From NCBI GenBank assembly GCA_049511335.1, contig JBEKYD010000001.1, positions 28,097 to 92,096 of the forward strand: 64,000 bases of DNA, given 5' to 3'. Below the pieces are notes generated by a model. The model was not told where the DNA came from and did no database searches. It saw only the letters and a program-made list of their open reading frames with translations. Both the position numbers and the translations under genes were made by a program. Positions 17,164 through 46,888 of the stretch are shown here, piece after piece; positions within the stretch are counted from its first letter, which is position 1; each line of letters begins with the position of its first letter. Source of the stretch: Bryobacteraceae bacterium (lineage in GTDB: Bacteria; Acidobacteriota; Terriglobia; Bryobacterales; Bryobacteraceae).

Positions 17164-17240
17164 CCGGCAATCAGGTTTTCGTAACGGATTCAAGGGCCAT
17201 GTCGAACGCCGTCACGGTGAATTTTCCGGAGGGATAACCC

Positions 17241-27600: not shown

Positions 27601-27617
27601 TGGTAAGCTCCAGCACT

Positions 27618-28001
27618 TTAGAAGGCGCCGCTCTGGCGGTGACACCGATCGCAGGTATCGAACGCGCCTTTCCCGTTGGAGAAGGCGTTTTTGCGATCGT
27701 CGGGCACGCCGTCGTTATTGTGACACGCAAAACACTTTGCGCCCGTTGTATGGTCCGCAAACGCGATGAGCCCTTGTCTGCGCGTAGCAAAGAGTGCCTT
27801 TCCCGTGCCCGCGAAATCGCCGTGGCAATCGTTGCAGCGAAAGCCCTCGGATGCGTGCCGTTGGTGGTCGAAGACGACCTTACCGTGTCCGCCGCCGCGA
27901 TAACTCAGGGTGGGCAGAGGCCCACCCGCTTCGATCGATCCCGGCCACAGGCAGAGCAGCGCCCAAGTCAGCGCCAGCCCTATACCGATTCGGAGTCGCA
28001 T
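27618..28001 (-). CDS. periplasmic triheme cytochrome c (c7 / c3 family)
   Basis: Start set to the ATG at 28001. Sec signal MRLRIGIGLALTWALLCLWPGSIEA. Three CxxCH sites (CNDCH, CFACH, CDRCH) plus a VVFDHQRH distal-His region within 127 aa. Confidence 0.85.
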   Translation of the reverse strand: MRLRIGIGLALTWALLCLWPGSIEAGGPLPTLSYRGGGHGKVVFDHQRHASEGFRCNDCHGDFAGTGKALFATRRQGLIAFADHTTGAKCFACHNNDGVPDDRKNAFSNGKGAFDTCDRCHRQSGAF

Positions 28002-28009
28002 GGTCCCCC

Positions 28010-31826: not shown

Positions 31827-31840
31827 CATCATGCATGATG
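31827..31840. promoter_or_regulatory. perfect 14-bp palindrome CATCATGCATGATG (candidate operator)
   Basis: Self-complementary by inspection. Lies in the 883-bp divergent region between the GH42-FMN DH-c7-GntR operon and TBDR 32348. Shares the 10-mer ATGCATGATG with 32144-32153. Confidence 0.3.
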
Positions 31841-31947
31841 TGTAAACAGATGTCAAGCTCTGTTTATCCTCATTATGAAATGAAAGAAACAGGTGCGGGC
31901 GGAAAGGCCGTGGTGGTGAACCGGTCTGGGGAAACCCCAGGTGTGTC

Positions 31948-32031
31948 AACCGCTCCCTAACGGTCGCGGATCGGTTACGACGCCGTGTGTTTGCAGCCAC
32001 TTACCGAGCCGCGACCGTTAGGGAGCGGTTG
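31948..32031. repeat. REP family 1, complete hairpin (84 bp)
   Basis: Arms CAACCGCTCCCTAACGGTCGCGGATCGGTTA and TTACCGAGCCGCGACCGTTAGGGAGCGGTTG. The loop contains TGTTTGCAG, as in the copy at 37601. Confidence 0.85.
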
Positions 32032-32143
32032 CCGGGAACGGATTCGCCCGGATTTGTGAAGCACCCGAAACACCGTGGCAGGCGATTCAGTCCACAATCA
32101 AGAGGGTGTGGGATAAAACCATATTGACATCGTAAACTCCTTG

Positions 32144-32155
32144 ATGCATGATGCA
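32144..32155. promoter_or_regulatory. second ATGCATGATG site (inverted repeat TGCAT-G-ATGCA), candidate operator
   Basis: ATGCATGATG at 32144-32153 is identical to 31831-31840. It is adjacent to a TTGACA hexamer at 32124-32129 and lies about 195 bp upstream of the TBDR start. Confidence 0.25.
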
Positions 32156-32347: not shown

Positions 32348-35300
32348 ATGAAGCTCCATTTTGAGAGGTTGAGTGTGCGGTGTGTCGTTCCGATGCTCGT
32401 GTGCATCGTAGCGTTCGCATTGACGGCACGCGCTCAGACGTTTTTCGGGTCGATCGTGGGCACAGCCACGGATTCCTCCGGCGCCGTTGTGCCCGCGGCG
32501 ACGGTGACCTTGACCAACACCGGTACAGCCGAACAAAGAACCGCTCAAACGGACGCGGTCGGCAATTACTCCTTCGTTAGCCTGTTGCCTGGTAGCTACA
32601 GCGTGACGGTTTCGAAGACTGGGTTCAAACAGTCCAAAGTTGACTCGATCCCTCTACGGGTGGACCAGGTGGTTCGCGCCGACGCGATCCTGCAAGTAGG
32701 TGAGTCCTCGCAGGCAGTCGAGGTCTCGGCGTCCAGTGCCTTACTGCAAACCCAAACCTCGACAATCGGCCAGGTGGTCGAGTCGAAACAGGTTGCGGAT
32801 TTGCCATTGAACGGCCGGAATGTTTTGAATCTAACTATGATCGTGCCGGGCGTAGTGCAGGAGGGCGGTTCTTTTGGAAACCCGGTGACCAATAGTGTCA
32901 ACGCCTGGGGCAACTATCAGATTGGCGGTGGCATCGCGAACCAAAGTGGATTCTACCTCGACGGCGCCCCGGTGAACATCAGCTACTGTCAGATGGTGGC
33001 TCTAGTTCCCACGCAGGACGCCATCCAGGAATTCGACGTTCAGAGTAACAACATCAGCCCGGAATTCGGGAAGTCGGCCGGCGGAATCGTCAACATGACA
33101 ACCAAATCCGGCACCAACGATTACCACCTCGAACTCTATGAGTACCTGCGGAACAGGGACCTGAATGCCAACCTGTTCGTGAACAACACCGCGGGTATTT
33201 CCCGGCCGGAATGGACCCAGAACCAATTTGGCGGAACGCTCGGTGGGCCGATCAAGAAAGACAAGACTTTCGCATTTCTCAGTTGGGAGCATTACGACAT
33301 GCACCAGGCGTTCCCGACTTTGACCACCGTGCCGACGCCGTCGATGCTGGCGGGTAACTTTACGCAGGCCGGCGTTCCGCAGATATTCGATCCCTTGACG
33401 ACCTGCGGAACCGGTGGCAACACGGCGACATGCGGGACGTCCAACGGAAGCACGCTATATGCTCGCACGCCTTTTCCGGGCAACATCATCCCTACCAGCC
33501 GGTTAAATCCGACAGCTAGCATTCTATCGCCGATGTTGTGGCCGGCAGCGACCAATCCGAACGCCATAACTAACAATTTTCTGGCCAACTATCCCGAATC
33601 GTACAGTTACAACCAGTACACGGCGCGCATTGACCAGAAAATTGGCGAGAAGCAACAGCTCTTCGGCCGGTTTACGTATTTTCGCATGCTTCCCACTACT
33701 ACCAACCCCCTGTTGAACAACACCAGCAAGACCAAGTATTACCACACGGACCAGGCGGTCTTCGGGGACACGATTCTGATCGATCCGACGACGGTAGCGG
33801 ATCTGAGAGCTTCCTTTATTCGCTATAAGCTGTTTGTTCAACCGGGAAGCTGCTGCAACTTCAAATACGCGCAGCTCGGCGGGAATTGGGCATCCTACCA
33901 GGGAAACGCGCAGTTTTCGGAGATGCCCATGCCCAACGTGGCGGGGATGTACAACTTGAACGGAGTCGCGTTTGACTCGGAGACCGACAATGACTACGCT
34001 CTATCGGGATCGTTGACCAAGACGCTCGGCCGCCATACGTTGAAATTCGGCGCTGAAGCTAGGCGCGTGGAATGGTCGTATTTCCAGAGCAACATCGTGG
34101 GCGGCACGTTCAATGCGGATTCCGGATTTACTTCCGAGTACCCGCTGGTGGGCTCCGGCGCGGGCTCTCCCGCCACGACCGGTTTCGGCTTTGCTTCGTG
34201 GATGCTGGGCTTCCCCTCTTCCGGAAGCGCGCAAGAGCCGGCGCTGTCTTTTGCCAGCTACTACTATGGGGGTCTCTTTGCAAATGACTCCTTCCGCGTC
34301 ACCAACAAACTGACACTCAACCTCGGTTTGCGTTGGGAGCAGCCGGGGTCCTTTCACGAGCGTTACGACAGCTTGACCGCCTTCCTCCCGAACGCGCCGG
34401 CGACGGCTCTGTCGCAGCAAACCGGGCTGCAGAACCTGCAGGGCATTCTGGCTCTGACCGGCTCTTCGCAGTACCCCAGCCGCGATTGGCAAAACCTGCA
34501 CTGGAAAGATTTCTCACCCCGGGTTGGCTTTGCCTACAGCCTGACCAATAATTGGGTAATTCGCGGCGGATACGGAATCCTGTACCTGCCGATTAACGCC
34601 GCCTGGGCACTATCGCCCTACAATGCGCCTGTAAATCTGGCCACCACCACGATGACCGCTTCACTCAACGGCAATCTCACGCCCGATCTGGCGACCACGC
34701 TGAGCAATCCTTTCCCCAATGGGATGGCGTCGCCTCCCGGACACAGCCAGGCGTATGTGAACAGCCTGATCGGACAAGGTTTTCAATCGCCGGTTCCCAA
34801 TATGCCGAATGCTTATGCCCAGCAGTGGAATTTAGACGTCCAACGGCAGATTGGGACGGGGTTGATGGTGGATGCGAGCTACGCCGGCGCCAGAGGCATA
34901 CATCTTCCGGTCGCCTCCCAGAACATCGACGCGCTTCCGGACCAGTACGACTCGATGGGTAATGCGTTGCTGACCGCGGTTAACAACCCGTTCTATGGCA
35001 CTATCCCGACAAGCGCCGGAGTACTGGGACAGTCTACCGTCCTACAGGGCTATCTATTAAGGCCCTATCCCCAGTACCTTTACATGCAATCGATCGGACC
35101 CAATATCGGCGACTCCTACTACGATGCTTTTAACCTCAAAGTGACGGAGCGCATGAAACACGGCGTACTGCTCGTGGCATATACATGGTCGAAGTTCCTG
35201 GGAACCACGGACACGCAAACCCCCTTCGACGAAGGCGTTTCGAGCGCCACGGGCGGCGGGGCGGGAGCCGAGTTTATCGGCGGGCAGAATGGCCTCCAAG

Positions 35301-35917
35301 ACAACAACAACATCAAGGCAGAGAAATCTCTGGAAGCTTTTGAAACGCCAAACCGATTGGTTTTCAGCTACGTCTATGACCTTCCCTTTGGCAAGGGGCA
35401 AAAGTTTCTCAGTGGGGTGCATGGTGTTGCGGGTAAGCTGGTTTCCGGCTGGAGCATAAACGAGATCACCACGTTCCAGACTGGCTTCCCCCTGGCGCTG
35501 TACGATTCCACTTCCAACACTCTGACCGGCACCTTTGCGGCAGGAAAGGGCGTTACCCGGCCAAACTATGTCGGCGGTTGCAATCCGGTTATCTCCGGTC
35601 CGGCGACGTCGAGATTGAAGGAGTGGTTCAACACGTCCTGCTTCACGGCGCCCGGAACTTTTGCGAACGGCGACGAGCCTAGGGTCGACCCGGTACTCCG
35701 CTGGGGCGGTGTCAATAACTTCGACCTTTCGTTCAGCAAAGTCACCCAACTTACCGAACGGTTGAAACTCGACTTTCGAGCCGAAATCTTCAACATATTC
35801 AACCGGGTCCAGTTCGGTGTGCCGGGCGAAGCCTACGGTACGTCCTCGTTCGGTGTCATGACCGGGCAGTTTAACCAGCCCCGGATCGTGCAATTCGGTC
35901 TGCGGCTGTCTTACTGA
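32348..35917 (+). CDS. TonB-dependent outer-membrane receptor with CarboxypepD_reg-like N-terminal domain
   Basis: 1189 aa. Signal peptide ends ALTARAQ. Ig-like N-domain GSIVGTATDSSGAVVPAATVTLTNTGT...GNYSFVSLLPGSYSV. Plug region LPLNGRN and a long beta-barrel ending in the aromatic terminus GLRLSY. Confidence 0.9.
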   Translation: MKLHFERLSVRCVVPMLVCIVAFALTARAQTFFGSIVGTATDSSGAVVPAATVTLTNTGTAEQRTAQTDAVGNYSFVSLLPGSYSVTVSKTGFKQSKVDSIPLRVDQVVRADAILQVGESSQAVEVSASSALLQTQTSTIGQVVESKQVADLPLNGRNVLNLTMIVPGVVQEGGSFGNPVTNSVNAWGNYQIGGGIANQSGFYLDGAPVNISYCQMVALVPTQDAIQEFDVQSNNISPEFGKSAGGIVNMTTKSGTNDYHLELYEYLRNRDLNANLFVNNTAGISRPEWTQNQFGGTLGGPIKKDKTFAFLSWEHYDMHQAFPTLTTVPTPSMLAGNFTQAGVPQIFDPLTTCGTGGNTATCGTSNGSTLYARTPFPGNIIPTSRLNPTASILSPMLWPAATNPNAITNNFLANYPESYSYNQYTARIDQKIGEKQQLFGRFTYFRMLPTTTNPLLNNTSKTKYYHTDQAVFGDTILIDPTTVADLRASFIRYKLFVQPGSCCNFKYAQLGGNWASYQGNAQFSEMPMPNVAGMYNLNGVAFDSETDNDYALSGSLTKTLGRHTLKFGAEARRVEWSYFQSNIVGGTFNADSGFTSEYPLVGSGAGSPATTGFGFASWMLGFPSSGSAQEPALSFASYYYGGLFANDSFRVTNKLTLNLGLRWEQPGSFHERYDSLTAFLPNAPATALSQQTGLQNLQGILALTGSSQYPSRDWQNLHWKDFSPRVGFAYSLTNNWVIRGGYGILYLPINAAWALSPYNAPVNLATTTMTASLNGNLTPDLATTLSNPFPNGMASPPGHSQAYVNSLIGQGFQSPVPNMPNAYAQQWNLDVQRQIGTGLMVDASYAGARGIHLPVASQNIDALPDQYDSMGNALLTAVNNPFYGTIPTSAGVLGQSTVLQGYLLRPYPQYLYMQSIGPNIGDSYYDAFNLKVTERMKHGVLLVAYTWSKFLGTTDTQTPFDEGVSSATGGGAGAEFIGGQNGLQDNNNIKAEKSLEAFETPNRLVFSYVYDLPFGKGQKFLSGVHGVAGKLVSGWSINEITTFQTGFPLALYDSTSNTLTGTFAAGKGVTRPNYVGGCNPVISGPATSRLKEWFNTSCFTAPGTFANGDEPRVDPVLRWGGVNNFDLSFSKVTQLTERLKLDFRAEIFNIFNRVQFGVPGEAYGTSSFGVMTGQFNQPRIVQFGLRLSY

Positions 35918-35944
35918 GCGGCTGTAATACTGAGATGCCGCGGT

Positions 35945-35990
35945 GCGTGGCGCCTTCGAGCCGAACGTCAAGGCGCCACGCTTTACGTTT
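35945..35990 (+). terminator. rho-independent terminator after TBDR 32348-35917
   Basis: 12-bp perfect stem GCGTGGCGCCTT (35945-35956) / AAGGCGCCACGC (35970-35981), a 13-nt loop, then TTTACGTTT. Confidence 0.55.
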
Positions 35991-36052
35991 CCAGCGCGCA
36001 TGGCGGCGGTCGCGTTTCCGTACCGGCCGTGACGTGTGTTGAAAGGAGTGGC

Positions 36053-37105
36053 ATGAGTACCGGGGACTCGACAAGACGGCAATTCGTGAAGACATCGGTC
36101 GCCGCGGCTTCCCTGGCAGGTGTGGCTGTGGCTCAGGACGATCGGCGTAAGGTCATCGATGCCTGGGGACATGTCTCGCTGCCGCGATTCCTGAGCGCGG
36201 AGGAGTACATAGCGCTTCTCGACGCAAACGGCGCGGAAGCGGCCATTGTAGGAACCGCCGCTACCTGCCCCGACCTACGGGAGTTGTCCCGCGCGGCGGT
36301 TCAGTACCCGGACCGCTTCCGCATCATCGGTATGGCCATGGGCCGCTCTCCCGCGGAGAGGGCCGCCTGCATGGCCGCGCAGATGGAGTGCGGATTCACC
36401 GGCATCCGCCTGCAAGCGGAACTGATCGCCAAAGAGCCGGAGTTGTTGGATGTGGTCGGCAAGGCGGGAGGCACTCCTTATCTGGAAGGGAGCGAGGGGT
36501 ATCGCGCCGGGGCCCGTCAGCTTCTTGAATTCCTGGACCGCTACCCGAACTGTATCGTGTGTGGCACCCACTTTGCGGGACCCACCGACCCGGCAATCTT
36601 TACCAAACAGGAATTGGTGGGCCGCTTATTTCGGCATCCCCGTTTTCTGGTGATCTTCTCGCGCCAAGGTTACATGGATCCAGAGCCACTCAAGATCTGG
36701 ACTCGGGCGCTGGTGGAACTCACTGGCTGGGACCGAATCATGTACGGCAGCGAGTTTCCCGTGGCGCTGTGGCGCGACGAAACCTTCCGCTCCACGCAAG
36801 GCTGGATCGATGCCGCCGGCCTCAAGCCTACCGCCGCCCAGAGAGCGCGGTTCTTTTACGAGAACGCGCAACGGCACTTTTTCCAAAAACGCCGCCCTGC
36901 TCGCATCATCGACGCGAAATGGGAGCGAACCGACTGGAAGACGGACTCTCCGGTGTGGCTGTTTCAAAAGAAAGGTGTCGATCTGCCGGAGGCGAGCCAC
37001 CGCAAGATTCTCCTCGCGTATCTGGCCAAGGGCGGCGACACCGGTATTGGCAGTTACCGCGACTTCGTGACCCAGTTATGCATCGACATGGCAAACAAGC
37101 TGTGA
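36053..37105 (+). CDS. amidohydrolase-2 (TIM-barrel metal-dependent hydrolase/lactonase-like) protein with Tat signal
   Basis: Start set to the ATG at 36053. Tat motif MSTGDSTRRQFVKTSVAAASLAGVAVA. Amidohydrolase_2-like landmarks VIDAWGHV near the N-terminus and IMYGSEFPV near the C-terminus. Both differ from the usual HxH and GSDxP, so this is a divergent member. Confidence 0.7.
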   Translation: MSTGDSTRRQFVKTSVAAASLAGVAVAQDDRRKVIDAWGHVSLPRFLSAEEYIALLDANGAEAAIVGTAATCPDLRELSRAAVQYPDRFRIIGMAMGRSPAERAACMAAQMECGFTGIRLQAELIAKEPELLDVVGKAGGTPYLEGSEGYRAGARQLLEFLDRYPNCIVCGTHFAGPTDPAIFTKQELVGRLFRHPRFLVIFSRQGYMDPEPLKIWTRALVELTGWDRIMYGSEFPVALWRDETFRSTQGWIDAAGLKPTAAQRARFFYENAQRHFFQKRRPARIIDAKWERTDWKTDSPVWLFQKKGVDLPEASHRKILLAYLAKGGDTGIGSYRDFVTQLCIDMANKL

Positions 37106-37560
37106 TGGCTTATGTGGACAAGCTTATGAAACAATGGTTTCCGATACTTCTGATCGCAGTTTCTTCCGGGGTAGTCGTGGTCAACGGCCAGACACCCGAA
37201 AAGGACGCTCTCGCGGCAGTGGACGGCTGGAGGCAGGGGATGCTCCACAAGGACAAGGCACAGCTCGAAAAAGTCCTGAGCGATGCCCTCATTTTCGGTC
37301 ACTCCGACGGGCACACCCAGACCAAAGTCGAGCTGATCGATTCGGTGATGAGCGGCAAGACGAACATCGATGCGATGGAATTCTCCGATACCGTCGTTCG
37401 CGTTTTCGGCAATTCCGCCATCGTAAGATGCAGAATCGATCTCACATCCAGCGGGAACGGCAAGAGCTCCATGGCTCATGTGAACGTCCTTCACGTCTTG
37501 ATCAAGGGTCCTCAAGGTTGGCAGTTGGTAGCACGGCAGGCTACTAAGCTGGCGCAGTAA
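37105..37560 (+). CDS. secreted NTF2-like (SnoaL/DUF4440) protein
   Basis: The ATG at 37105 overlaps the preceding TGA by 1 nt (TGATG). Signal MKQWFPILLIAVSSGVVVVNG. DUF4440-like body LSDALIFGHSDGHTQTKVELI...VLHVLIKGPQGWQLVARQAT. Confidence 0.75.
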   Translation: MAYVDKLMKQWFPILLIAVSSGVVVVNGQTPEKDALAAVDGWRQGMLHKDKAQLEKVLSDALIFGHSDGHTQTKVELIDSVMSGKTNIDAMEFSDTVVRVFGNSAIVRCRIDLTSSGNGKSSMAHVNVLHVLIKGPQGWQLVARQATKLAQ

Positions 37561-37600
37561 TTTGGCGCATTACCGACCTGGGAAGTTCGCAACTTAGCCG

Positions 37601-37691
37601 TTTTAACCGCTCCCTAACGGTCGCGGCTCGGTTATGAGTCCCGCTTGTTTGCAGTCCTTACCGAGCCGCGACCGTTAGGGAGCGGTTAAAA
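37601..37691. repeat. REP family 1, complete hairpin (91 bp)
   Basis: Arms TTTTAACCGCTCCCTAACGGTCGCGGCTCGGTTA and TTACCGAGCCGCGACCGTTAGGGAGCGGTTAAAA are perfectly complementary. Sits 41 nt after the NTF2-like stop, so it is a likely terminator. Confidence 0.9.
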
Positions 37692-37751
37692 CGAACGTAG
37701 CGCCGATCTGCTGAACTCGCCCGGCACCTGTAGCTTGCTGGGACGCTGTAT

Positions 37752-37775
37752 TATTGAATGAATCCAGCTTCAATA
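37752..37775. promoter_or_regulatory. inverted repeat TATTGAA-N10-TTCAATA just upstream of the enolase-superfamily gene
   Basis: Arms at 37752-37758 and 37769-37775 are exact reverse complements. AT-rich within a GC-rich genome. Lies 18 nt before the ATG at 37793 and just before the GGGAAAGGGGG RBS-like stretch. Confidence 0.25.
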
Positions 37776-37792
37776 CGGGAAAGGGGGCTTAG

Positions 37793-39052
37793 ATGAAACG
37801 TCGCGACTTTCTGAAGGTCACAGCAGGGCTTACCGCCGGCTGTCTATTTCCAGCTCCATTCGACCGGCTCGCCGCCGCGCAGAGGAACAAGGTCAAGATT
37901 ACGGGCGTCAAGTGCATGATCGTGCGCGGCACCTGGGACTGGAACTTGATTAAGGTGGAAACGGATTCGGGCTTGTACGGCCTGGGCGAGGCGTATTGGG
38001 GGTGGGGCGTCAAGGATCTTGTGGTGAACAAAATGGGTTCGATCGTCACCGGCGAGGACCCCCTGAATGTTGACAAGCTCTATACCAAAATGCTCATGGA
38101 GAGCGCCGGCGCCGGTGCGCTGGCCGGAGTCACCGTGACGGCGGCAAGCGGTATCGAGATCGCGCTTTGGGATCTCTGCGGGCGAATTCTCGAAACACCG
38201 GTCTGTAATCTGCTGGGCGGCAGATTTCGCGATAAGGTGCGGTTCTACCGAACCATGCAAGTAGTGGACCGCGTCGAGGACCCGGCCTCGTGGCGCGACA
38301 AGGTGCGGCAGGCGAAGGCCGAGAAGTGGGGTTGGACTGCATTCAAGTTCCAGGGCGATGCGGTGCCGCGAAAAGCCGACCCGGAGTATCGCGAACCGGG
38401 CCACGACCGTTACGGACGCAATCTCACCCACAAAGACATTCGTATGATCGCAAGTGGCATGGACGTGGTGCGCGATGAGCTGGGGCCGGATGGCGATTTC
38501 GCCATCGACCTGCATTGGCATTACGATGCGCGCGATGTCATCGACCTCGCGCACGCACTGGAACCTTCGAAACCAATGTGGATCGAAGACCCCGTCCCGC
38601 CCGATAATCCCGAAGTAATGGCGCGCGTGACTCACGCCATCAACGTTCCGGTTTGCACCGGCGAGAACTTGTATACCCGCGAGGGTTTCCGCAGACTGAT
38701 TGAGCTACAAGCTTGCGATGGCGTGCATATCGACATCCCGAAATCGGGAGGTCTGCTGGAATCGAAGCGTATCTCCGACTACGCCTCCATGTACGGGATT
38801 TGGACCGCGGCCCATAACCCTGCGAGCCCGGTCGGCACGACAGCCTCCGCTCATGCGGCCGCATCCATGCGCGATTTTCGTATCCACGAACTGGCAAACT
38901 ATGTCGAGTGGTGGCCGGACCTGATCCTCCGCGAAGGCCCATTCTGGGAAAAAGGTTACTTCCTAATTCAAGACAAGCCCGGCTATGGACTCGAGATCAA
39001 TCCGGACGTTGCCAAGGCACACCTGGCGCCGGGGGAAACATATTGCTTTTAG
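37793..39052 (+). CDS. enolase-superfamily (mandelate racemase/muconate lactonizing enzyme family) acid-sugar dehydratase-like protein with Tat signal
   Basis: Tat motif MKRRDFLKVTAGLTAGCLFPAPFDRLAAA. MR/MLE landmarks GLYGLGEA, ASGIEIALWDLCGRILETPVCNLLGG, IDLHW, WIEDP, CTGEN, DIPKSGG. Confidence 0.9.
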   Translation: MKRRDFLKVTAGLTAGCLFPAPFDRLAAAQRNKVKITGVKCMIVRGTWDWNLIKVETDSGLYGLGEAYWGWGVKDLVVNKMGSIVTGEDPLNVDKLYTKMLMESAGAGALAGVTVTAASGIEIALWDLCGRILETPVCNLLGGRFRDKVRFYRTMQVVDRVEDPASWRDKVRQAKAEKWGWTAFKFQGDAVPRKADPEYREPGHDRYGRNLTHKDIRMIASGMDVVRDELGPDGDFAIDLHWHYDARDVIDLAHALEPSKPMWIEDPVPPDNPEVMARVTHAINVPVCTGENLYTREGFRRLIELQACDGVHIDIPKSGGLLESKRISDYASMYGIWTAAHNPASPVGTTASAHAAASMRDFRIHELANYVEWWPDLILREGPFWEKGYFLIQDKPGYGLEINPDVAKAHLAPGETYCF

Positions 39053-39067
39053 TTTCCAGCGCAGCCT

Positions 39068-39790
39068 TCAAATCCGCCCGAATTTCGCTACGGCTTCCTT
39101 AATCGACCGGAATTTCTCGATAAACGGCAGCATGCTGTGTTCGGTGTTGTCCAGTTCCTCGGCTTTCTTGAGAACCTCGGCCGCGTGCGCGCGAGGCACT
39201 ACGGCCACGCCATCTTCGTCGGCCGCGACGATGTCCCCGGCATTCACGCGCACGCCGGCGCAAGTCACGGGCACGTTCACGCCCGCGAATCGATAGTGGT
39301 TGATGGTGGTTGAGGGCACAACTCCGCGGCTGAACACCGGGAACTGCAATTTGCGGATTTGCGGCGTGTCGCGCACGCTTCCGTCAATCACCGCTCCCGC
39401 CAGGCCGCGGTATTTCATGGCGGTCGCCATCAGGCCTCCCATGCCGGCGAAATCGGCGCCGTCCTCCAGAACCATCACGTAGACGGAGCCGGGCTTGGCG
39501 TTGTCGATGGCGTCCAGCATGCCTTCGGAAGCCTTGGAGCCCTCCTTGTGTTCTTCCTTTTTCATTAGCACGGTCACCGCCGGCCCGGCAAACTTGGCCG
39601 GGGCGAGGGGCCGCATCTCATGAGACATGTAGTTCCGCTGCCCATAGAGCTGCTCCATGGCATCCGAGGTCGAAGCCACCTCCACCATGCGGAAACCCTC
39701 GATCAGCGGGTCGCCCCCCGTCGATTGCGCCAGCAACCATGCGGCAACTCCCAAGACGGCGAGCCCTGTTATGCATAGCGTTCGTTTCAT
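39068..39790 (-). CDS. RraA-family protein (HMG/CHA-type class II aldolase-like) with Sec signal
   Basis: Signal MKRTLCITGLAVLGVAAWLLAQS. RraA-family core GAVIDGSVRDTPQIRKLQFPVFSRGVVP...VNVPVTCAGVRVNAGDIVAADEDGVAVVP. Confidence 0.85.
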   Translation of the reverse strand: MKRTLCITGLAVLGVAAWLLAQSTGGDPLIEGFRMVEVASTSDAMEQLYGQRNYMSHEMRPLAPAKFAGPAVTVLMKKEEHKEGSKASEGMLDAIDNAKPGSVYVMVLEDGADFAGMGGLMATAMKYRGLAGAVIDGSVRDTPQIRKLQFPVFSRGVVPSTTINHYRFAGVNVPVTCAGVRVNAGDIVAADEDGVAVVPRAHAAEVLKKAEELDNTEHSMLPFIEKFRSIKEAVAKFGRI

Positions 39791-39802
39791 ACCGATTCCT
39801 CT

Positions 39803-41458
39803 TTACCAGAAATGATGGCCGCTGGGAATTAGGCGGGGAAACACGTAGGCGTACATCATCACAATCGCCCCCACCAGCGCCAGCAGGCCCAGGCTGTGCT
39901 TGAGAACCGCGCGGAACAACAGGCCCTCTTTGCCTTGCTGCCCCGTAACCGCGCAGCCGATCACCAGCGATTGCGCCGCAACCATTTTCCCCATCACGCC
40001 GCCGGCACTGTTGGCCGCGCCCATCAGAATCGGGCTCAGCCCCAGTTTGTTGGCGGTAATCACCTGAAAGCTGCCGAACAACGCATTCGACGCGGCGGCG
40101 GTTCCACTGAGCGCCACTCCCACCCAGCCGATGACCGTCCCAAAAAACGGAAATAGCGCTCCCGTGTGTGCCATCGCCATCCCCATGGTAGCGTCCATTC
40201 CGCAGTAGCGCGTGACGTAGCCGATGCCCAGCATGGCCATAATCGCGACCACGCTCCAGGCCAGCCGCGCCAGCGACTTCGAAAACACGCGCAGAGTGCG
40301 CCGCAAGGAAAGTCCGCCCAGCAGTGCGGCAACCAAGCCGGCGAAAAAGATCCCCGTCCCGCTCGTGGAGAGCCAGGAAACGTCGAACAGGGCTGGCTCG
40401 GCATAGGGCTTCACCACCACGGGCGGAGTCCGCATCACCATCATGTGCAAGCCGGGAACCGGGACCATCCAGGAAGTTTTGTCTAAGACACGCATCACCG
40501 AGGGCAGGCCCCACAGCACCACGAAGGCCGCCAGCAGCAGGAACGGCGACCATGCCAGCAAAATGCGCCCGGCGGTGAGCGATTCACCGGGCAACTTCTT
40601 CCTCACCGGCGCTTCGCCGCCGTATCGCCAGATCGCTTTCGGGCTCCAGACCTTTCGGAAAAACAGCGCCAGCACGAGCAGCGTCCCGATGCCTCCCACG
40701 ATCGCCACCAGCGAAACATTCATATAGTTCGACCAGAAGAACTGGATGCCGCCGAAGGTCAGGCTGCACGCCACCAGCGCCGGCCAAACCGCCAGCGTGT
40801 CCCTGCGATTGCACAGCACGCGCATGGCCCAGAACGGCAGCACCAGCATGGTGAGCGGCAGAATGCGGCCCACCATGGCGCTGAAATCCGCTTCGCCCAG
40901 CCCTGTCACCGCCGCCAGTATGCGGAGCGGGTTTCCCAGCGCGCCAAATGCGACCGGAGCGGAATTCGCGATGAGACAGATCAGCGCCGTCTGGAACGGT
41001 GGAAATCCCAGCCCGATCATCATCGCTCCGCATACCGCCACCGGTGCGCCTCCTCCTCCTGCGCCCTCCAGCAAAGAGCTAAAAGCGAAAGCGATGAGCA
41101 GAACCTGCAGGCGCCGGTCGTCCGAGATGCCGCCGATCGATTGTTTGATGGTTTCGAACTGGCCGGTTTCCACCGAGACGTCGTAGACGAATACCGCCGC
41201 GACCACGATCCAGGCGATCCGGAACCAACCGAACACCAAGCCGCCGGCCACCGCGCCCGCCACCATCGCGGCCGGCATCCGAAACACCAGCAGCGCTACC
41301 GCCACGGCGGCCGCCAGCGCATAGATCGCCGCCCGCCATGCCGGCGCGCCCCGCACCGCCAGGAAAAAAAACAGAACGCATACGGGGGCCGCCGCGGCTA
41401 ACGTCGATAGCAGCGGGTTGCCGAGCGGGTCGCAGTTCTGTAGCCAGACTTGGTTCAT
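39803..41458 (-). CDS. L-lactate/glycolate permease (LctP family)
   Basis: 551-aa polytopic protein. LctP-typical N-terminus WLQNCDPLGNPLLSTLAAAAPVCVLFFFLAV and conserved LLEGAGGGGAPVAVCGAMMIGLGF region. Confidence 0.9.
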   Translation of the reverse strand: MNQVWLQNCDPLGNPLLSTLAAAAPVCVLFFFLAVRGAPAWRAAIYALAAAVAVALLVFRMPAAMVAGAVAGGLVFGWFRIAWIVVAAVFVYDVSVETGQFETIKQSIGGISDDRRLQVLLIAFAFSSLLEGAGGGGAPVAVCGAMMIGLGFPPFQTALICLIANSAPVAFGALGNPLRILAAVTGLGEADFSAMVGRILPLTMLVLPFWAMRVLCNRRDTLAVWPALVACSLTFGGIQFFWSNYMNVSLVAIVGGIGTLLVLALFFRKVWSPKAIWRYGGEAPVRKKLPGESLTAGRILLAWSPFLLLAAFVVLWGLPSVMRVLDKTSWMVPVPGLHMMVMRTPPVVVKPYAEPALFDVSWLSTSGTGIFFAGLVAALLGGLSLRRTLRVFSKSLARLAWSVVAIMAMLGIGYVTRYCGMDATMGMAMAHTGALFPFFGTVIGWVGVALSGTAAASNALFGSFQVITANKLGLSPILMGAANSAGGVMGKMVAAQSLVIGCAVTGQQGKEGLLFRAVLKHSLGLLALVGAIVMMYAYVFPRLIPSGHHFW

Positions 41459-41580
41459 CTCACGGGCACCGGGTAGAACTCACCAAAAACGCGCCGCGTA
41501 GATGCTCGCGCCGGCGCCGCGATGGATGCTCCCGGCCATCGATTGCGGATTGCTCTTGCGGATCTCTTCGTCTCTTCGCC

Positions 41581-42981
41581 TTAACCGCGCCGCTGCTGCT
41601 TCTTCTCCTCTTCGATCATGCTCCACAGCCAGTCGCCCGAGCGCTCGTGGTCCCACTGCGGCGTGGGCTCGAAGTAACCGCTGCCGGGCGCCAGATGCTT
41701 CTTCACCACGTCCTCGTTCAGCGTGATTCCCAAGCCGGGCTTGTCCGGAACCGTGATGAAGCCTTTATCGATGATGGGCTTTTCGATCCCTTCCACCAAG
41801 TCCTGCCACCAGGGTACGTCCAGCGAGTGGTTTTCGCAGGCCAGGAAATTCTCCGTGGCCGCCGCGCAGTGAACGCTCGCCATGGCGCCTACCGGAGTGC
41901 CCGCATAGTGCATGGCCATGGGGACACCTAGTTCCATCGCGGCATCGCCTATCTTATGCGTCTCGAGGATCCCACCCGACGTGGAGATGTCCGGATGGAT
42001 TTTGCTCACCGCGTGCTTCTCGCACAGCTTGATGAAATCTTCCTTCAGGTAAATGTCCTCACCCGTCAATATCGGCGTGGGGCTTTCGGCGGTGATATGC
42101 GCCAACATGTCGGTATACTGCCAGGGAATCACGTCCTCCATCCAGGAAAGGTTGAATTTCTCGTACGCCTTCCCCAGCCGGATGATCGAGTTCACCCCCA
42201 GGTGCCCCAGGTGGTCCATGGAAAGCGGAATCTCCATGCCGACGGCCTCGCGCGCCGCCTGCACGTATTCGGAAAGCTTCTCGATGCCCTTTTGGGTCAC
42301 CTCTTGGGCTACGAATGGGTGCGGCAGAGCCCTGCGCTCCCACGTCGTCAGTTCCGACGGCCCGGTCACCGTGTCCGGAATCTTTTGCACCAGGTTGATG
42401 CCCACGTCCATCTTGAGCCAGGTGAGGCCTCTCTCCTTGCGCTCCTTCAGGCGCTGCGCGAAAACGTGGGGATCCGGCGATTCATCCGTGTCGGCGTAGA
42501 TCCTGACCCGGTCGCGGAACTTGCCGCCCAGCATTTGGTAGATCGGGATGTTGTACACCTTGCCGGCGATATCCCACAAGGCTTCTTCCACCGCCACTAC
42601 TCCACCGGCCTGCCGCCCGTGGTAGCCAAACTGCTTGATCTTCTGAAAGAGAAACGTAATATTGAGAGGGTTCTCATTCAACAGCCGGCTTTTCAGAAAC
42701 AGAGCATAGGTGGCGCTGGCGCCGTCCCGCACTTCGCCCAGTCCATAGACACCCTGGTTGGTGTCGAGGCGGACAATGGGGCAGGGGCTGGGCCCCGGCT
42801 TCACCACCGTGGCCACGCGTAGGTCCGTAATCTTCAGCGCCGAGGGCTTCGAGTTGGCGTTCACATTGCGCGGCTCCGACTGCTCCGCCGCGGCCTCCCG
42901 CGACAGAAGCGCTCCGCCCATGATCCCGGCCGATGCCTTGAACAGCTCCCGCCGCCCTAGCTTGCCATTGCGTTTCAACAT
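41581..42981 (-). CDS. enolase-superfamily (MR/MLE) dehydratase-like protein with Tat signal, paralogue of 37793-39052
   Basis: Tat motif MLKRNGKLGRRELFKASAGIMGGALLSREAAA. Landmarks GVYGLGEV, AVEEALWDIAGKVYNIPIYQMLGG, SMDHLGH, WMEDV, LTGED, DISTSGG. Confidence 0.9.
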   Translation of the reverse strand: MLKRNGKLGRRELFKASAGIMGGALLSREAAAEQSEPRNVNANSKPSALKITDLRVATVVKPGPSPCPIVRLDTNQGVYGLGEVRDGASATYALFLKSRLLNENPLNITFLFQKIKQFGYHGRQAGGVVAVEEALWDIAGKVYNIPIYQMLGGKFRDRVRIYADTDESPDPHVFAQRLKERKERGLTWLKMDVGINLVQKIPDTVTGPSELTTWERRALPHPFVAQEVTQKGIEKLSEYVQAAREAVGMEIPLSMDHLGHLGVNSIIRLGKAYEKFNLSWMEDVIPWQYTDMLAHITAESPTPILTGEDIYLKEDFIKLCEKHAVSKIHPDISTSGGILETHKIGDAAMELGVPMAMHYAGTPVGAMASVHCAAATENFLACENHSLDVPWWQDLVEGIEKPIIDKGFITVPDKPGLGITLNEDVVKKHLAPGSGYFEPTPQWDHERSGDWLWSMIEEEKKQQRRG

Positions 42982-43132
42982 TGCCGTTTTCTCCTCTCTG
43001 TCTGCTAGGTTACCCCAGCTACCTTGCGACTGCTCAGTTCTCCCTTTCGGATTCCCTGATGACAGTATTCCGCCTTTGTCTGCGCCTTGGTTTCCGGTGG
43101 GCCGGACACCGCCGGCCCACCGGGAGAATTGA

Positions 43133-46100
43133 TTACCAGTAAAACTTCAACGAGACCTGCTGACGGCGCGGGGAGTTCGCCTGCGAGTTCCAATTACCGA
43201 AGTTGGCGTTCTGCAGGGACGCGGCGCCGCTCAAGGGGCCGAACTGGGTCCGATTCAGGAGGTTGAACGTCTCCCATCGAAATTCCACGCGCTTCGACTC
43301 TTTGATGCTGAAGTTCCTCGAAAGCGACAGACTCTCATTGTAGTTCGGGAAGTAGCGGCACTCGGGATTGTACCGCGTCGCGTTGCCGAGCGCCGTAGTG
43401 GGCTGCGTGCCAAACCACGATACCGGTTGGAAAAAGTTATCCTTCGCGGGATCGAATTTTCCGGTGTAAGTGCCGCGCCAGCCTTGGTAAGTGGTTATCG
43501 TGGGCCGGTTCCCCCCGTTGAAGATGGGGAAGCTGACGGTGGTTGTCAGCCCGATGGGCGTCCCGCTGGAGTACCCATCGATTCCGGCAAAGCGCCAGCC
43601 GCCAAGGATGGCGGAAGCCGCACTCTTGCTGCTCAGATACCTCCTGCCCTTCCCGAAAGGCAGTTCATACAAATAGTTCAGCTTCACTACGTGCGTCTGG
43701 TCGTAGGCTGAAATCGATTTTTCCAGCGCGCGGTCATATTGGTTTTCCGGCTCGCCACTGGACTGGCTGTCCGCGTCGGTCAACAGCCTGGAAAACACAT
43801 AGGAGGCTTGTATGGTCAAGCCCGAGGAATACCGCTTGTTATACTTCACTTCCAGGGAGTTATAAGTCGAGTGGCCGATGCGGTCGCCCTGGCCGTTGAT
43901 GGTATCGACAGTCGAATATTGCGGGAAGGGACGCAGGGATTGTGCCACGGTCGCCCCGGTGCCCCAGAGCGAGTTGAAGCCCGGCCAAGGCGCGACAATC
44001 CCCGCGGCGTTAGCGGCGGCCGAGCCCACCTGTGAGTTCAACAAGGTGCGTCCCGACGCGGTGAACGGGTTGAGGGCTGCCGGCAGATTGTTGAAATTAA
44101 TCTGGTTATACGCCAGGATATTGGACTGGATATGGGCCGCGAACATACCAAGGTAGCCGACCTCCAACACCGAGTTGGCCGTCACCTGGCGCTGAATATT
44201 GAAGGAGTAAGTAAGATCGTCGGATGGCGTGACTGCCGCTTTGCCGTTGTAGTAAGGAACGTTGGAGCCGTTGCCAACCGAGGGGTTGATGTTGGGTACC
44301 TGGGCCCACGCCGGCGCGCCATTTTGCAAGACCCAAAGCGGGGTCAAGCCTTGGCTTTGGTCGGTAACGGTGATTCGCTGTACAATTCCCAGGTTGTGCG
44401 ATGAGCTGCCTACGTAAGTGACTGGCCCGAAACTGCGGCTGGCGGCGCCCCGTATCGTCGTCTTACTATCCACGGCGTAGGCGAAGCCGAGCCGCGGTCC
44501 CGCGCCTTTCCAGCCAGGGACCAGCGTGGCATTGCCCGTCCTGCCCGGACCGGTGCCGGCGAAAATCAGAGCGCCCGGAATCCCGCCGGCGCCGGGGTTC
44601 GGCAAGCCCGGAGCAAAATCGCTGGCATCGCCGTTCGCCACCAGCGGCGCCCCGTTGATTTCATAGCGCAGGCCGAGATTCAAAGTAAGTTTCTGCGATA
44701 CGCGCCAGTCGTCCTGAAAATACATCTGGTTGGTACGGAACTGAGTAGCCAGGAATCGTGGCGTGTCGAGCGAATAGCCGGAGACCTGTCCCAACAGGAA
44801 GGATGCAAACGCGCTCCCGCCGGCGACGCTCTGGTTGGTGTTCAGCGGGATGCCGGTATTCAGGTCCTGAAAGGTCACATTCCCCGCGATATTCTGCTCT
44901 CCGAAACCGTCGTAATGAGTGGTGTTGTAGTAGTAGCCCCACTTCAGGGTGTGCTTACCGATGCTCTTGGTCATGTCGTCATGGAACTCCACGACGATGT
45001 TATCCGAGCCGTTGGGAGCGGCCACGCCCCAAGCGGTGAACTCGCTGTTGGTGAAGGTAACTTGCGGGAAATCGTCGCCGCAGGCGGGATAATTCGGTAT
45101 GCAGATCCCCTTGCTCTGCCAATTCGTCGCTTGAGTGTTGGTAAGTCCCCCGGTTTGGCCGGCCCCGCTCCAGGTGGCGAACGAGCCGTGGTTCTGCGAC
45201 CAGTTATTGCCGCCCGCGTAGAATCGGTTCAGCAAAGTCGGCGTGATGGTGTAATCGTAACTGAGGCGATAAACGTCGGACCCGTTATAGCCTGGGTTGC
45301 CGGCCAGAGGTTCGGGCAAGCCGGGAGCGCCGGTGGGGCCGTACAGGTCATGCTCCAGGGTGTGCTCGAAAAAGAACGAGAGCCTCTGTTTGGAGGTGAC
45401 TATCTGGTCGATCTTGATGCTGTACTTGTTGTTGGGCGATATGGTAGTGCCGTTCGAAATATAGTTGTTGCGAACGTAAGTCGAGGTGCCGGGCGTCGCC
45501 GCCACGTTGGCTTTCACCAACGGCTGCACATAATTGACGATCGACTGCGTGATCGGATCGATCCGCGATTGCGGAATCTGGTTACTGGGAAAAGGCGTTC
45601 TGACGTACGAGCCGTTTACCAGCGACGTGGTAGATGGGTCGTAGATCGTATACGGCACCCCGCTGGCGTTCACAAAGTTCTGAAAGTTGCCGCTGTACAT
45701 TTCCTGCGACGGAACGCTATAGGGAGTTGGGGTGGCTCCGATGCGGTTGCGAAAACCCTCGTAGGAGAAGAACCAGAAAGTCTTGTCTCTGCCGTGGTAA
45801 ATCTTGGGAATCCACACCGGCCCCCCTGCCGTAACTCCGAAATCGTTCTGCTTGTAGACCGGCTTGGTGGCGCCGAAGTAGCCCTTGGCGTCCAAATCCT
45901 GGTTGCGCAGGAACTCATACGCGTCCCCGTGAAACTCGTTGGTTCCGGACTTGGAAACGAAGCTCATGGTACCGCCGGAGGCGTGGCCGACCTCGGCCTT
46001 GAACCCGCCGGAGGTCACGCTGAATTCGGTCAGCGCGTCAACCGAAGGGGTGTTGTACGCCGTCCACGTGACCCCGTTGGTGTCCAACTGGCCGGCAGTA

Positions 46101-46687
46101 GTAACGGTAGAGCCGTCGAGCGTCATGCCATAGGCGCCTCCGTGCCCGCCGCCTACCCGGTATTCACTGGTGCCCCCCTGTACGGTGACGTTGTTTACCT
46201 CCGCCGTGGTGGCCGACAGGTCGAACGGGCTGCGCACCGCCCCGTTCACCAGCACCGGCAGATCGTCCACCATCCGGTTCGATACCTCGGTAGCCACTCG
46301 GGCCGATTCGGACTGCAACAACTGTGCGTTGGCCACGACCTCGACGGTCTGCTGTGCGGTGCCTACCTCCAGCGTGGCGTCCACCAGCAAGGTCGAACCA
46401 GGCTGAACCTCAATGCCGTCTGCAATATATATCTTGAATCCGGTGCTCTCAACCCGCACCCGGTAGGTGCCCACCGGCAGCGACGGAACGGTGTAATCGC
46501 CCGCCGTGGTCGTGGTGGTTTTGTAGCTGGTATTGGTACTGACTTGTACCGCGGTGACTCGCGCGCCGGGCACAACGGCCCCGCTGGCATCTTTGACGGT
46601 GCCAGTAATGACGCCACGGTCGGTCTGCGCCAGAAGTGCGGCGGCGCAAAGCATAAGGACCGGAACGGCCCACAGTTTACCCTGCAT
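43133..46687 (-). CDS. TonB-dependent outer-membrane receptor with CarboxypepD_reg-like N-terminal domain
   Basis: 1184 aa. Signal MQGKLWAVPVLMLCAAALLAQ. N-domain GVITGTVKDASGAVVPGARVTAVQVSTNT...GDYTVPSLPVGTYRV. Barrel ending SLKFYW. Confidence 0.9.
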   Translation of the reverse strand: MQGKLWAVPVLMLCAAALLAQTDRGVITGTVKDASGAVVPGARVTAVQVSTNTSYKTTTTTAGDYTVPSLPVGTYRVRVESTGFKIYIADGIEVQPGSTLLVDATLEVGTAQQTVEVVANAQLLQSESARVATEVSNRMVDDLPVLVNGAVRSPFDLSATTAEVNNVTVQGGTSEYRVGGGHGGAYGMTLDGSTVTTAGQLDTNGVTWTAYNTPSVDALTEFSVTSGGFKAEVGHASGGTMSFVSKSGTNEFHGDAYEFLRNQDLDAKGYFGATKPVYKQNDFGVTAGGPVWIPKIYHGRDKTFWFFSYEGFRNRIGATPTPYSVPSQEMYSGNFQNFVNASGVPYTIYDPSTTSLVNGSYVRTPFPSNQIPQSRIDPITQSIVNYVQPLVKANVAATPGTSTYVRNNYISNGTTISPNNKYSIKIDQIVTSKQRLSFFFEHTLEHDLYGPTGAPGLPEPLAGNPGYNGSDVYRLSYDYTITPTLLNRFYAGGNNWSQNHGSFATWSGAGQTGGLTNTQATNWQSKGICIPNYPACGDDFPQVTFTNSEFTAWGVAAPNGSDNIVVEFHDDMTKSIGKHTLKWGYYYNTTHYDGFGEQNIAGNVTFQDLNTGIPLNTNQSVAGGSAFASFLLGQVSGYSLDTPRFLATQFRTNQMYFQDDWRVSQKLTLNLGLRYEINGAPLVANGDASDFAPGLPNPGAGGIPGALIFAGTGPGRTGNATLVPGWKGAGPRLGFAYAVDSKTTIRGAASRSFGPVTYVGSSSHNLGIVQRITVTDQSQGLTPLWVLQNGAPAWAQVPNINPSVGNGSNVPYYNGKAAVTPSDDLTYSFNIQRQVTANSVLEVGYLGMFAAHIQSNILAYNQINFNNLPAALNPFTASGRTLLNSQVGSAAANAAGIVAPWPGFNSLWGTGATVAQSLRPFPQYSTVDTINGQGDRIGHSTYNSLEVKYNKRYSSGLTIQASYVFSRLLTDADSQSSGEPENQYDRALEKSISAYDQTHVVKLNYLYELPFGKGRRYLSSKSAASAILGGWRFAGIDGYSSGTPIGLTTTVSFPIFNGGNRPTITTYQGWRGTYTGKFDPAKDNFFQPVSWFGTQPTTALGNATRYNPECRYFPNYNESLSLSRNFSIKESKRVEFRWETFNLLNRTQFGPLSGAASLQNANFGNWNSQANSPRRQQVSLKFYW

Positions 46688-46888
46688 GCATTACCTCCCA
46701 CTGGTAGGTCGAGATGCCCGTTTTGGCTGCGTGAGTTATAAAGTCGATTAGCCTATTTCTTAGCCGAGACCGTCCTCTTCCCTTCCCAGTCGCGGCAATT
46801 ATACACCTAATAGAATCTGTTTCGCCGATTATTTTTATACTCCTGGTTTCGAGATACTCCTACCAGTGGAGTTATACTGACATCTCAC

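Follow-up and report, generated by a model that had tools for sequence, protein, structure and literature searches.

In a 64,000-nucleotide stretch of contig JBEKYD010000001.1 from a Bryobacteraceae bacterium (assembly GCA_049511335.1), which we call the window and number from its first letter, we found genes for a predicted exported sugar-acid dehydratase of the enolase superfamily (Eno2) and a predicted exported aldolase-like protein of the RraA family (RraA1) beside a small-acid importer of the LctP family, an arrangement that suggests an undescribed periplasmic breakdown route. Eno2 is the core of a conserved module with an exported RraA-like protein. We put the probability at roughly one half that the region from ~22 to 47 kb encodes an extracytoplasmic toolkit for the catabolism of sugars and sugar acids, in which Eno2, the RraA-like protein and LctP would form the core and an aldo/keto reductase and an amidohydrolase the front end. 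In the literature that we searched, neither this gene arrangement nor any periplasmic pathway with enolase-superfamily or RraA enzymes is described.

In the route that we envisage, an acidic sugar or small glycan would enter through the TonB-dependent receptor TBDR2, and in the periplasm Eno2, exported by twin-arginine translocation (Tat), would form a 2-keto-3-deoxy acid by dehydration of an acid sugar. The RraA-like protein, exported by the general secretory (Sec) pathway, would convert the Eno2 product, most likely by class II retro-aldol cleavage to pyruvate and a small aldehyde, and LctP would import the resulting monocarboxylate, be it pyruvate, lactate or glycolate. The Tat aldo/keto reductase and the Tat amidohydrolase would probably act as the sugar 1-dehydrogenase and the lactone-processing enzyme that feed the aldonate to this core. 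We hold the chemistry of dehydration followed by aldol cleavage to pyruvate only tentatively, at somewhat below even odds.

Enolase-superfamily sugar-acid dehydratases and RraA-fold aldolases have so far been treated as cytoplasmic. If they work in the periplasm, abundant Acidobacteria of peat and soil would break down sugars and sugar acids of plant origin outside the cytoplasm and take up nothing but small acids from them, so that transporter inventories and the carbon-use predictions drawn from genomes and metagenomes would need a different reading, and both the enolase superfamily and the RraA family would join the lists of Tat and Sec cargo.

Eno2, RraA-like proteins and the LctP permease

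The neighborhood of Eno2 was sampled in its 80 closest orthologue loci (73-89% identity), which come from ~76 species-level genomes. Within 1 kb of Eno2, 33 of the 80 loci have an RraA-like gene and 19 of the 80 a TonB-dependent receptor gene. In the closest relatives, orthologues of TBDR2 (75-85% identity) stand directly upstream of Eno2, and four of the nearest (L113, L117, L118 and L127, compared with window positions 39068-49045) share the layout TMTC-like gene, TBDR2, Eno2, RraA2b and GH3 (a glycoside hydrolase gene). UxuA-like dehydratases with Tat signals recur beside Eno2 or RraA genes in relatives, as do 7-bladed lactonases and glycoside hydrolases.

Searches centered on the permease lead to a related set of genes. 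Of 23 loci with orthologues of the window LctP (57-68% identity), 10 have RraA2a and Eno2-like genes adjoining the permease, in differing gene orders; two more of these loci have an enolase gene alongside and two a 7-bladed lactonase. The genera that have the order LctP, RraA2a, Eno2-like or a variant of this order are g2, g17, g20, g22 and g28, and since 8 of the 10 loci come from one genus, they are not independent of one another. The window LctP is nearer to the permeases of these modules than to the paralogues in its own genome (41-45% identity), and LctP paralogues below 52% identity have none of these neighbors. A functional link among Eno2, the RraA-like protein and LctP had been proposed in an earlier reading made from the DNA letters without database searches (the sequence-only reading); adjacency in relatives supports it, and we consider the three to be probably functionally coupled.

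Eno2 matches both MR_MLE domains of Pfam, the N-terminal cap and the barrel (E 5e-45 and 9e-10), and its catalytic set (K190, D256, E282, E308, D331 and H358) is kept in an alignment with the crystal structure 2QQ6 and with relatives. In both enolases of the locus, this set takes in the three carboxylate metal ligands of strands 3-5 and the Asp of strand 6 with the His of strand 7. This mandelate racemase/muconate lactonizing enzyme-like structure is the closest solved relative of Eno2 and also of Eno1, the other enolase-superfamily protein of the locus (E ~1e-61), and shares their domain layout and metal ligands; because the entry names no function, it gives no substrate. For both enolases, the nearest NCBIfam models are those of galactonate, gluconate/galactonate and mannonate dehydratases, and the models of muconate cycloisomerase and the dipeptide epimerases rank far lower. 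The ranking names no substrate, but it favors sugar-acid dehydratases over the cycloisomerase and epimerase functions, as the sequence-only reading had expected, and together with the UxuA-like dehydratases, lactonases and glycoside hydrolases found beside these genes in relatives, it is in line with the sugar-acid theme of that reading.

The permease matches the Pfam family Lactate_perm (E 5e-137) and scores below the equivalog cut-offs of LldP (450 bits versus 918) and GlcA (392 versus 1121). Judged by its profile scores, it is a true member of the LctP family (TC 2.A.14) and not an LldP or GlcA equivalog.

RraA1 matches PF03737 with 139.9 bits (cut-off 24.5), and its best match in the PDB is the HMG/CHA aldolase LigK/PcmE of Pseudomonas putida F1 (3NOJ, E 5e-21). 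R140 and D141 of RraA1 align to Arg123 and Asp124, which have catalytic and metal-binding roles, respectively, in that enzyme (PMC5065237), so that both equivalents are kept; the HMMER alignment stops at chain residue 195, short of the metal ligand Glu199. Unlike LigK/PcmE, RraA1 is predicted to be exported, falls below the equivalog cut-offs and lies outside any aromatic ring-cleavage context. The aldolase step has to stay conditional because the RraA family also holds a keto-deoxy-aldarate dehydratase/decarboxylase, FlDet of Flavobacterium sp. UMI-01, which acts on a sugar acid of the 2-keto-3-deoxy-D-glucarate type (PMC8563752). FlDet resembles the system proposed here in its RraA fold, the kind of its substrate and its polysaccharide-utilization setting and differs from it in having been purified from cell extract, with no export signal reported in the description consulted, and in yielding alpha-ketoglutarate semialdehyde (PMC8563752). 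Going by these sequence relationships, the RraA-like protein could be an aldolase or a dehydratase/decarboxylase of the FlDet type. In NCBIfam, RraA1 and RraA2a alike match the uncharacterized model NF006093 best and the LigK models less well.

Among RraA genes elsewhere, the genome keeps one of the RraA2a type on contig C287 (45% identity). In two genomes of genus g2 (L075 and L076, 10035-14253), an RraA1 orthologue lies directly downstream, on the same strand and after a short gap, of a gene of ~1155 amino acids whose family is unknown. In another relative (L082, 7492-12388), a Tat enolase-superfamily gene, a transporter of the major facilitator superfamily (MFS), RraA1 and a Tat protein with a 3-keto-disaccharide-hydrolase domain stand in a row, with the MFS transporter, not LctP, beside RraA1.

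Eno1 is also recognized by both MR_MLE domains (E 9e-54 and 8e-13) and keeps its catalytic set (K185, D239, H241, E265, E291, D314 and H341), with Glu at the first ligand in some orthologues. No other gene of the locus was a neighbor of Eno1 orthologues in 19 contexts, apart from one exception with only a paralogue of the 7-bladed lactonase. In the neighborhoods examined, Eno1, the NTF2-like protein and the receptor TBDR1 showed no conserved partner, and they are most likely lineage-specific or local additions without a conserved link to the core.

Export signals and the reductase-amidohydrolase pair

Export signals were judged by motif and by conservation across relatives. The amidohydrolase has TRRQFVK followed by a hydrophobic region and AVA|Q, Eno1 has KRRDFLK followed by an uncharged stretch and AAA|Q, and Eno2 has GRRELFK followed by an uncharged stretch and AAA|E, while the RraA-like protein has a Sec-type signal ending in LLA|Q and the NTF2-like protein also has a Sec-type signal. 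In alignments, the N-terminal extensions of Eno1 and Eno2 stop exactly where the cytoplasmic crystal homologue 2QQ6 starts. Across hundreds of relatives, the motif, the hydrophobic region and the AxA site are kept: 107 of 116 full-length relatives of Eno1 pass a strict Tat test, with the other nine visibly carrying the twin arginines (RR) or having miscalled starts, and RR is present in all relatives of Eno2 that were inspected. The nearest representatives of Eno2 among 50%-identity clusters carry RR, and those at 35-40% identity begin at the catalytic domain. Both RraA types (RraA1 and RraA2) retain Sec signals in their orthologues, and within the amidohydrolase family, relatives at 59% identity or more form a clade with Tat signals and those at 42-54% a clade without. 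The aldo/keto reductase, the flavin mononucleotide (FMN)-dependent dehydrogenase, GH42, GH3 and the 7-bladed lactonase of the window carry signals as well, and TatC is encoded on contig C147 (216 bits).

The enzymes are thus very probably exported. The extracytoplasmic location that the sequence-only reading gave to the soluble enzymes agrees with signals that are kept in orthologues and lost only in the distant amidohydrolase clade. Since at least 10 of the 15 enolase-superfamily genes of the genome carry twin-arginine motifs (on contigs C29, C149, C12, C135, C80, C15, C91 and others), Tat export of this superfamily appears to be a trait of the genome as a whole and not of the locus alone.

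The amidohydrolase is assigned to the TIM-barrel family Amidohydro_2 by Pfam (55 bits versus 26.4) and by Foldseek matches of its structural model (pLDDT 85) to the family. Its best profile match, a marginal one (E 0.0086), is the cog3618 amidohydrolase 4DLF of Burkholderia multivorans, which we take to be an L-fucono-1,5-lactonase, and phmmer found no match to it in the PDB. The amidohydrolase gene probably starts at the ATG at 36053, in agreement with the called protein P0124, and the ATG of the NTF2-like gene overlaps its stop (TGATG), pointing to translational coupling. Among 150 genomes of the order, no orthologue was found; 98 relatives, almost all of them metagenomic, make up a small divergent family. 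In all three metagenomic contigs examined, the very next gene after the relative encodes a protein orthologous (74-83% identity) to the Tat aldo/keto reductase, whose gene in the window lies ~9 kb from that of the amidohydrolase, and neither the NTF2-like protein nor TBDR1 was a neighbor in these contigs. Signal-less relatives have an aldo/keto reductase, a GntR/FCD regulator and a sugar ABC transporter encoded in their vicinity. One such relative (L186, 5747-8960) is preceded by genes for an acid-sugar kinase of the DUF1537 type and a PdxA homologue, with sulfatase genes and one for a GHL6/GH42M protein alongside, a context that points to an acid-sugar role for the whole amidohydrolase family.

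Reductase and amidohydrolase are therefore most likely a second conserved enzyme pair. The best named PDB match of the reductase is the L-galactose dehydrogenase 7EZI (E 8e-12), and in the fucose cluster of Xanthomonas the sugar 1-dehydrogenase is an aldo/keto reductase. The window protein is likely the missing sugar 1-dehydrogenase. Elsewhere in the genome (contig C74, 12961-16432), a 58% paralogue of the reductase heads three more exported proteins, one of which has a lipoprotein-like N terminus.

Known systems, counterevidence and rival explanations

Non-phosphorylative routes are known from the cytoplasm, namely, the De Ley-Doudoroff-type galactonate route, the L-fucose (Xanthomonas XCC4065-4069) and L-rhamnose (LRA) routes and the Weimberg/Dahms pentose routes. 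The enzyme logic here would be the same, with a sugar 1-dehydrogenase, an Amidohydro_2 lactonase, an enolase-superfamily aldonate dehydratase and cleavage of a 2-keto-3-deoxy acid to pyruvate and a C2/C3 product. In contrast to those routes, conserved export signals are found on all soluble enzymes here, and the putative cleavage enzyme has the fold of RraA instead of belonging to the HpcH, DHDPS or Eda types. HxH is missing from the amidohydrolase, the genes are divided among several transcription units, and no kinase or NAD(P)-recycling partner is evident. The system thus departs from the known routes in its compartment, in using an RraA fold for cleavage and in its loose organization.

Several observations weigh against the toolkit reading. 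An LctP gene was found within 7 kb in 0 of the 80 closest Eno2 loci, and RraA1 orthologues (68-88% identity) are next to LctP in 0 of 29 loci and mostly lack the other neighbors of the locus. The closest relatives pair Eno2 with a different paralogue, RraA2b, and the window has LctP-RraA1 in its place; because RraA2b is the partner in the nearest relatives, the window arrangement is a local replacement. The profile models also stay at a distance: the best NCBIfam match of Eno1 and Eno2, the galactonate dehydratase model NF010624, gives 175 and 181 bits, respectively, against a cut-off of 311, with all others lower, and RraA1 is below the LigK/PcmE cut-offs (NF006731, 123 bits versus 179; TIGR02798, 108 versus 304.5). 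In the amidohydrolase, the IDxHxH motif reads IDAWGH, with W46 for the first His, so that the HxH of LigI and fuconolactonase is lacking; the strand-8 motif reads GSEFP, with Glu242 in place of Asp in the window protein and nearly all relatives (P0213 keeps Asp); and the top Foldseek matches mix 2,6-dihydroxybenzoate decarboxylase, putative PDC hydrolases and 4DLF, so that the fold does not separate lactonase from decarboxylase. An aldo/keto reductase has no free NAD(P) pool in the periplasm, no enzyme for the released aldehyde was identified, and the palindrome described below, by its position, ties the TBDR1-amidohydrolase-NTF2 unit to the operon of GH42, FMN dehydrogenase, cytochrome c7 and GntR regulator and not to the Eno2 unit.

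The sequence-only reading had joined all eight genes of 32348-46687 in one linear pathway from lactone to C3 products, and we consider a single eight-gene pathway unlikely. Eno1 without neighbors from the locus and the missing adjacency of RraA1 and LctP speak against it, and the amidohydrolase, for which the order yielded no orthologue, has as its conserved partner a reductase that lies outside the range of that reading. Nor does its likening of the amidohydrolase to LigI or fuconolactonase agree with the lack of HxH. A first, RraA-centered comparison of synteny (0 of 29 loci beside LctP or Eno1) had led us to regard the cluster as accidental, a view that was revised when the searches centered on Eno2 and LctP found the module with a paralogous RraA.

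A bolder extension concerns the cofactor of the reductase. Glucose-fructose oxidoreductase of Zymomonas mobilis is a Tat-exported sugar oxidoreductase that brings tightly bound NADP into the periplasm; it has the Gfo/Idh/MocA fold, in contrast to the aldo/keto reductase here, for which a bound cofactor is conjecture. Sugar oxidation in Bryobacterales might then be wholly periplasmic and non-phosphorylative: the reductase would carry bound NADP that is recycled, in a loop like that of glucose-fructose oxidoreductase, by reducing the aldehyde released by the aldolase, the exported FMN dehydrogenase and c7 would pass electrons from hydroxy acids to the respiratory chain, and only C2-C3 acids would cross the inner membrane via LctP. 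We regard this complete scheme as a long shot; if it were true, one small-acid importer would replace many sugar-specific transporters.

The same genes can be read as a periplasmic oxidative route for uronates or aldarates, in which the enolases would act on aldarates or aldarolactones, the amidohydrolase would resemble galactarolactone isomerase, and the RraA-like protein would be a 2-keto-3-deoxy-aldarate dehydratase/decarboxylase that forms alpha-ketoglutarate semialdehyde. The Agrobacterium pathway, with an amidohydrolase-superfamily isomerase followed by an enolase-superfamily cycloisomerase, counts in favor of this route, as does the rank of NF006093 ahead of the LigK models. FlDet is an RraA-family enzyme of just this kind (PMC8563752). 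We nevertheless consider the route improbable, as LctP would not be expected to carry a C5 dicarboxylic semialdehyde, the match to the cycloisomerase structure 4GGB (103 and 88 bits versus 210) is far below the 2QQ6 and GalD/ManD-like matches, the talarate/galactarate and glucarate dehydratase models rank low, and the locus showed neither a uronate dehydrogenase nor a semialdehyde dehydrogenase. Just as doubtful is the view that there is no common pathway at all, and that independent exported enzymes happen to lie together in a genome rich in them, with the permease serving lactate or glycolate uptake together with the FMN dehydrogenase, c7 and the GntR regulator in the manner of lldPRD. The neighborless Eno1 and most RraA1 orthologues, the absence of LctP from the Eno2 loci, a paralogous FMN dehydrogenase-c7-GntR-LctP cluster on contig C43 and the sheer number of such receptors and Tat enolases in the genome all fit such a view, but LctP orthologues adjoin RraA2a and Eno2-like genes in several genera and varied orders, with no FMN dehydrogenase, c7 or GntR gene within 1.5 kb of those orthologues, the adjacency of Eno2 and RraA genes is far above chance, and LctP and RraA1 in the window are separated by a very short gap.

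Two further explanations appear to us highly improbable. One would make the locus a periplasmic version of the lower protocatechuate/gallate 4,5-cleavage pathway for lignin-derived acids, with the amidohydrolase similar to LigI or LigJ (both of which belong to Amidohydro_2), the RraA-like protein as the LigK aldolase and the enolases as cycloisomerases. Peat and bog, where the metagenome-assembled genomes of the relatives come from, are expected to be rich in aromatics, and the match of the RraA-like protein to 3NOJ also suits this explanation; the unmet LigK cut-offs, the low rank of the muconate cycloisomerase model, the amidohydrolase without HxH and the lack of a ring-cleavage dioxygenase gene nearby do not, and the genes found alongside, in the window as in relatives, encode glycoside hydrolases, lactonases and UxuA-like dehydratases. 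We set this LigIJK-like reading aside because of the gene context and the NCBIfam ranks. The other would have the N-terminal extensions not be export signals and the enzymes be cytoplasmic, with their substrates brought in by other transporters. It draws on the fact that the signals were judged from motif and conservation only and is opposed by that conservation itself, by extensions that end exactly where the cytoplasmic homologues start, by the complete lack of an extension in the distant amidohydrolase clade and by the presence of TatC. Periplasmic catabolism of sugars and sugar acids around an Eno2-RraA-LctP core is the reading that we prefer for the region.

Locus layout and neighboring genes

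The assembly (8.1 Mb in 523 contigs) represents a Bryobacteraceae-type acidobacterium. All eight genes that the sequence-only reading had named were found at their positions by open reading frame (ORF) listing and family scans (Table 1), and the bracketing of six genes by two CarboxypepD_reg TonB-dependent receptors is borne out by ORFs and Pfam. In the description of the locus as similar to a polysaccharide utilization locus, the receptors hold good (OMP_b-brl_4 and CarboxypepD_reg) and the SusD-like gene does not: none was seen among the genes called in 32348-46687, each of which is assigned to another family, and there is thus no adjacent SusC/SusD pair. Since the genome has more than 60 receptors of the CarboxypepD_reg TonB type, two of them within 15 kb are weak evidence on their own.

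Table 1. Features of the ~22-47 kb region, in window coordinates
Feature	Position	Strand	Assignment and remarks
7-bladed beta-propeller lactonase	22195-23310	-	PF10282, E 1e-121; Sec-type signal ending MFA|QY
GH3 glycoside hydrolase	23323-25632	-	Pfam GH3 N and C domains, Fn3-like; N-terminal signal or anchor
Tat aldo/keto reductase	25766-26812	+	Pfam Aldo_ket_red; RRRTFVGAAFAGL motif; exact start codon uncertain; outside the range of the sequence-only reading
GntR/FCD regulator	26875-27645	-	Pfam GntR and FCD; weak NCBIfam LldR, GlcC and PdhR matches, all below cut-off
Triheme cytochrome c (c7)	27618-28003	-	Three CxxCH motifs
Tat FMN alpha-hydroxy-acid dehydrogenase	28010-29257	-	Pfam FMN_dh; SRRDLFG motif
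GH42 glycoside hydrolase with signal peptide	29281-31464	-	Pfam GH42 and GH42M
Palindromic motif (C)ATGCATGATG, two copies	31827 and 32140 (31827-32153)		Each overlaps the -10-like hexamer of one divergent promoter-like site
TBDR1	32348-35917	+	OMP_b-brl_4, E 8e-201, plus CarboxypepD_reg
Amidohydro_2 protein	36029-37105	+	Pfam E 1.4e-14; Tat signal
DUF4440/NTF2-like protein	37105-37560	+	Pfam DUF4440, E 3e-15; Sec signal
REP-like hairpin	37601-37691		Long exact words common to copies at ~31948-32031 and ~22057-22136
Eno1, enolase superfamily	37793-39052	+	Pfam MR_MLE_N and MR_MLE_C; Tat signal
RraA-like protein RraA1	39068-39790	-	Pfam RraA-like, E 1e-40; Sec signal; 12 bp downstream of LctP
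LctP-family permease	39803-41458	-	TIGR00795, 454 bits versus cut-off 341
Eno2, enolase superfamily	41581-42981	-	Pfam MR_MLE_N and MR_MLE_C; Tat signal
TBDR2	43133-46687	-	OMP_b-brl_4, E 3e-177, plus CarboxypepD_reg; heads the Eno2-LctP-RraA unit

The locus comprises three transcription units, namely, TBDR1-amidohydrolase-NTF2, Eno1 and, on the opposite strand, TBDR2-Eno2-LctP-RraA. Eno1 is counted as a unit of its own because a hairpin similar to repetitive extragenic palindromic (REP) elements divides it from the upstream operon. Taken as a whole, the region of ~22-47 kb loosely groups six or more transcription units, and nearly all of its soluble products bear a conserved export signal. 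The 15 bp (39053-39067) that separate the ends of the convergent Eno1 and RraA-like genes hold nothing that resembles a terminator. A GC-rich inverted repeat, CCGGTGGGCCGG...CCGGCCCACCGG (~43100-43130), lies directly after the TBDR2 stop and before Eno2, has no T-run and, at this junction of receptor and enzyme genes, may serve in attenuation or RNA processing.

Within the window, the palindrome (C)ATGCATGATG occurs only at its two positions between the GH42 operon and TBDR1 and is absent upstream of TBDR2, Eno2, Eno1 and the reductase. As sequence shared across units, we found only the REP-like hairpins and these two palindromes, with nothing common upstream of TBDR2, Eno2, Eno1 and the reductase. 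A scan for promoters and terminators gave no more than the shuffled expectation, and Rfam gave no family match in 21-48 kb.

Of the neighboring genes, the 7-bladed lactonase has homologues (41-63% identity) near LctP, Eno2, Eno1 or RraA orthologues in relatives and is a second candidate for the lactonase step. Among NCBIfam models, GH3 matches that of exo-alpha-(1->6)-L-arabinopyranosidase best (620 bits versus a cut-off of 1300), and a GH3 gene follows Eno2-RraA2b in the closest relatives.

In E. coli lldPRD and glcC/glcA, an LctP-family permease, a GntR/FCD regulator and an FMN-dependent 2-hydroxy-acid dehydrogenase are encoded together. A set of this kind is complete on contig C43 of the same genome (~13384-20042), where paralogous genes for a Tat FMN dehydrogenase, c7, DUF1080, GntR and LctP stand in a row, and is split across the window. 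Unlike in lldPRD and glc, the FMN dehydrogenase here is Tat exported by its signal and paired with a triheme cytochrome, and the window permease has a dehydratase and an RraA-like protein as its neighbors. That the FMN dehydrogenase and c7 relate to LctP-type substrates, as the sequence-only reading had proposed, is supported by the C43 set. The C43 cluster directly follows a gene whose N terminus, by eye, resembles that of a [NiFe]-hydrogenase large subunit.

Farther upstream in the window, a class I/II aminotransferase gene (14145-15332, + strand; Pfam E 1e-46) has a frame that includes STRRRFFAQMSAAVAAA, a Tat-like signal that is unusual for a pyridoxal phosphate-dependent aminotransferase.

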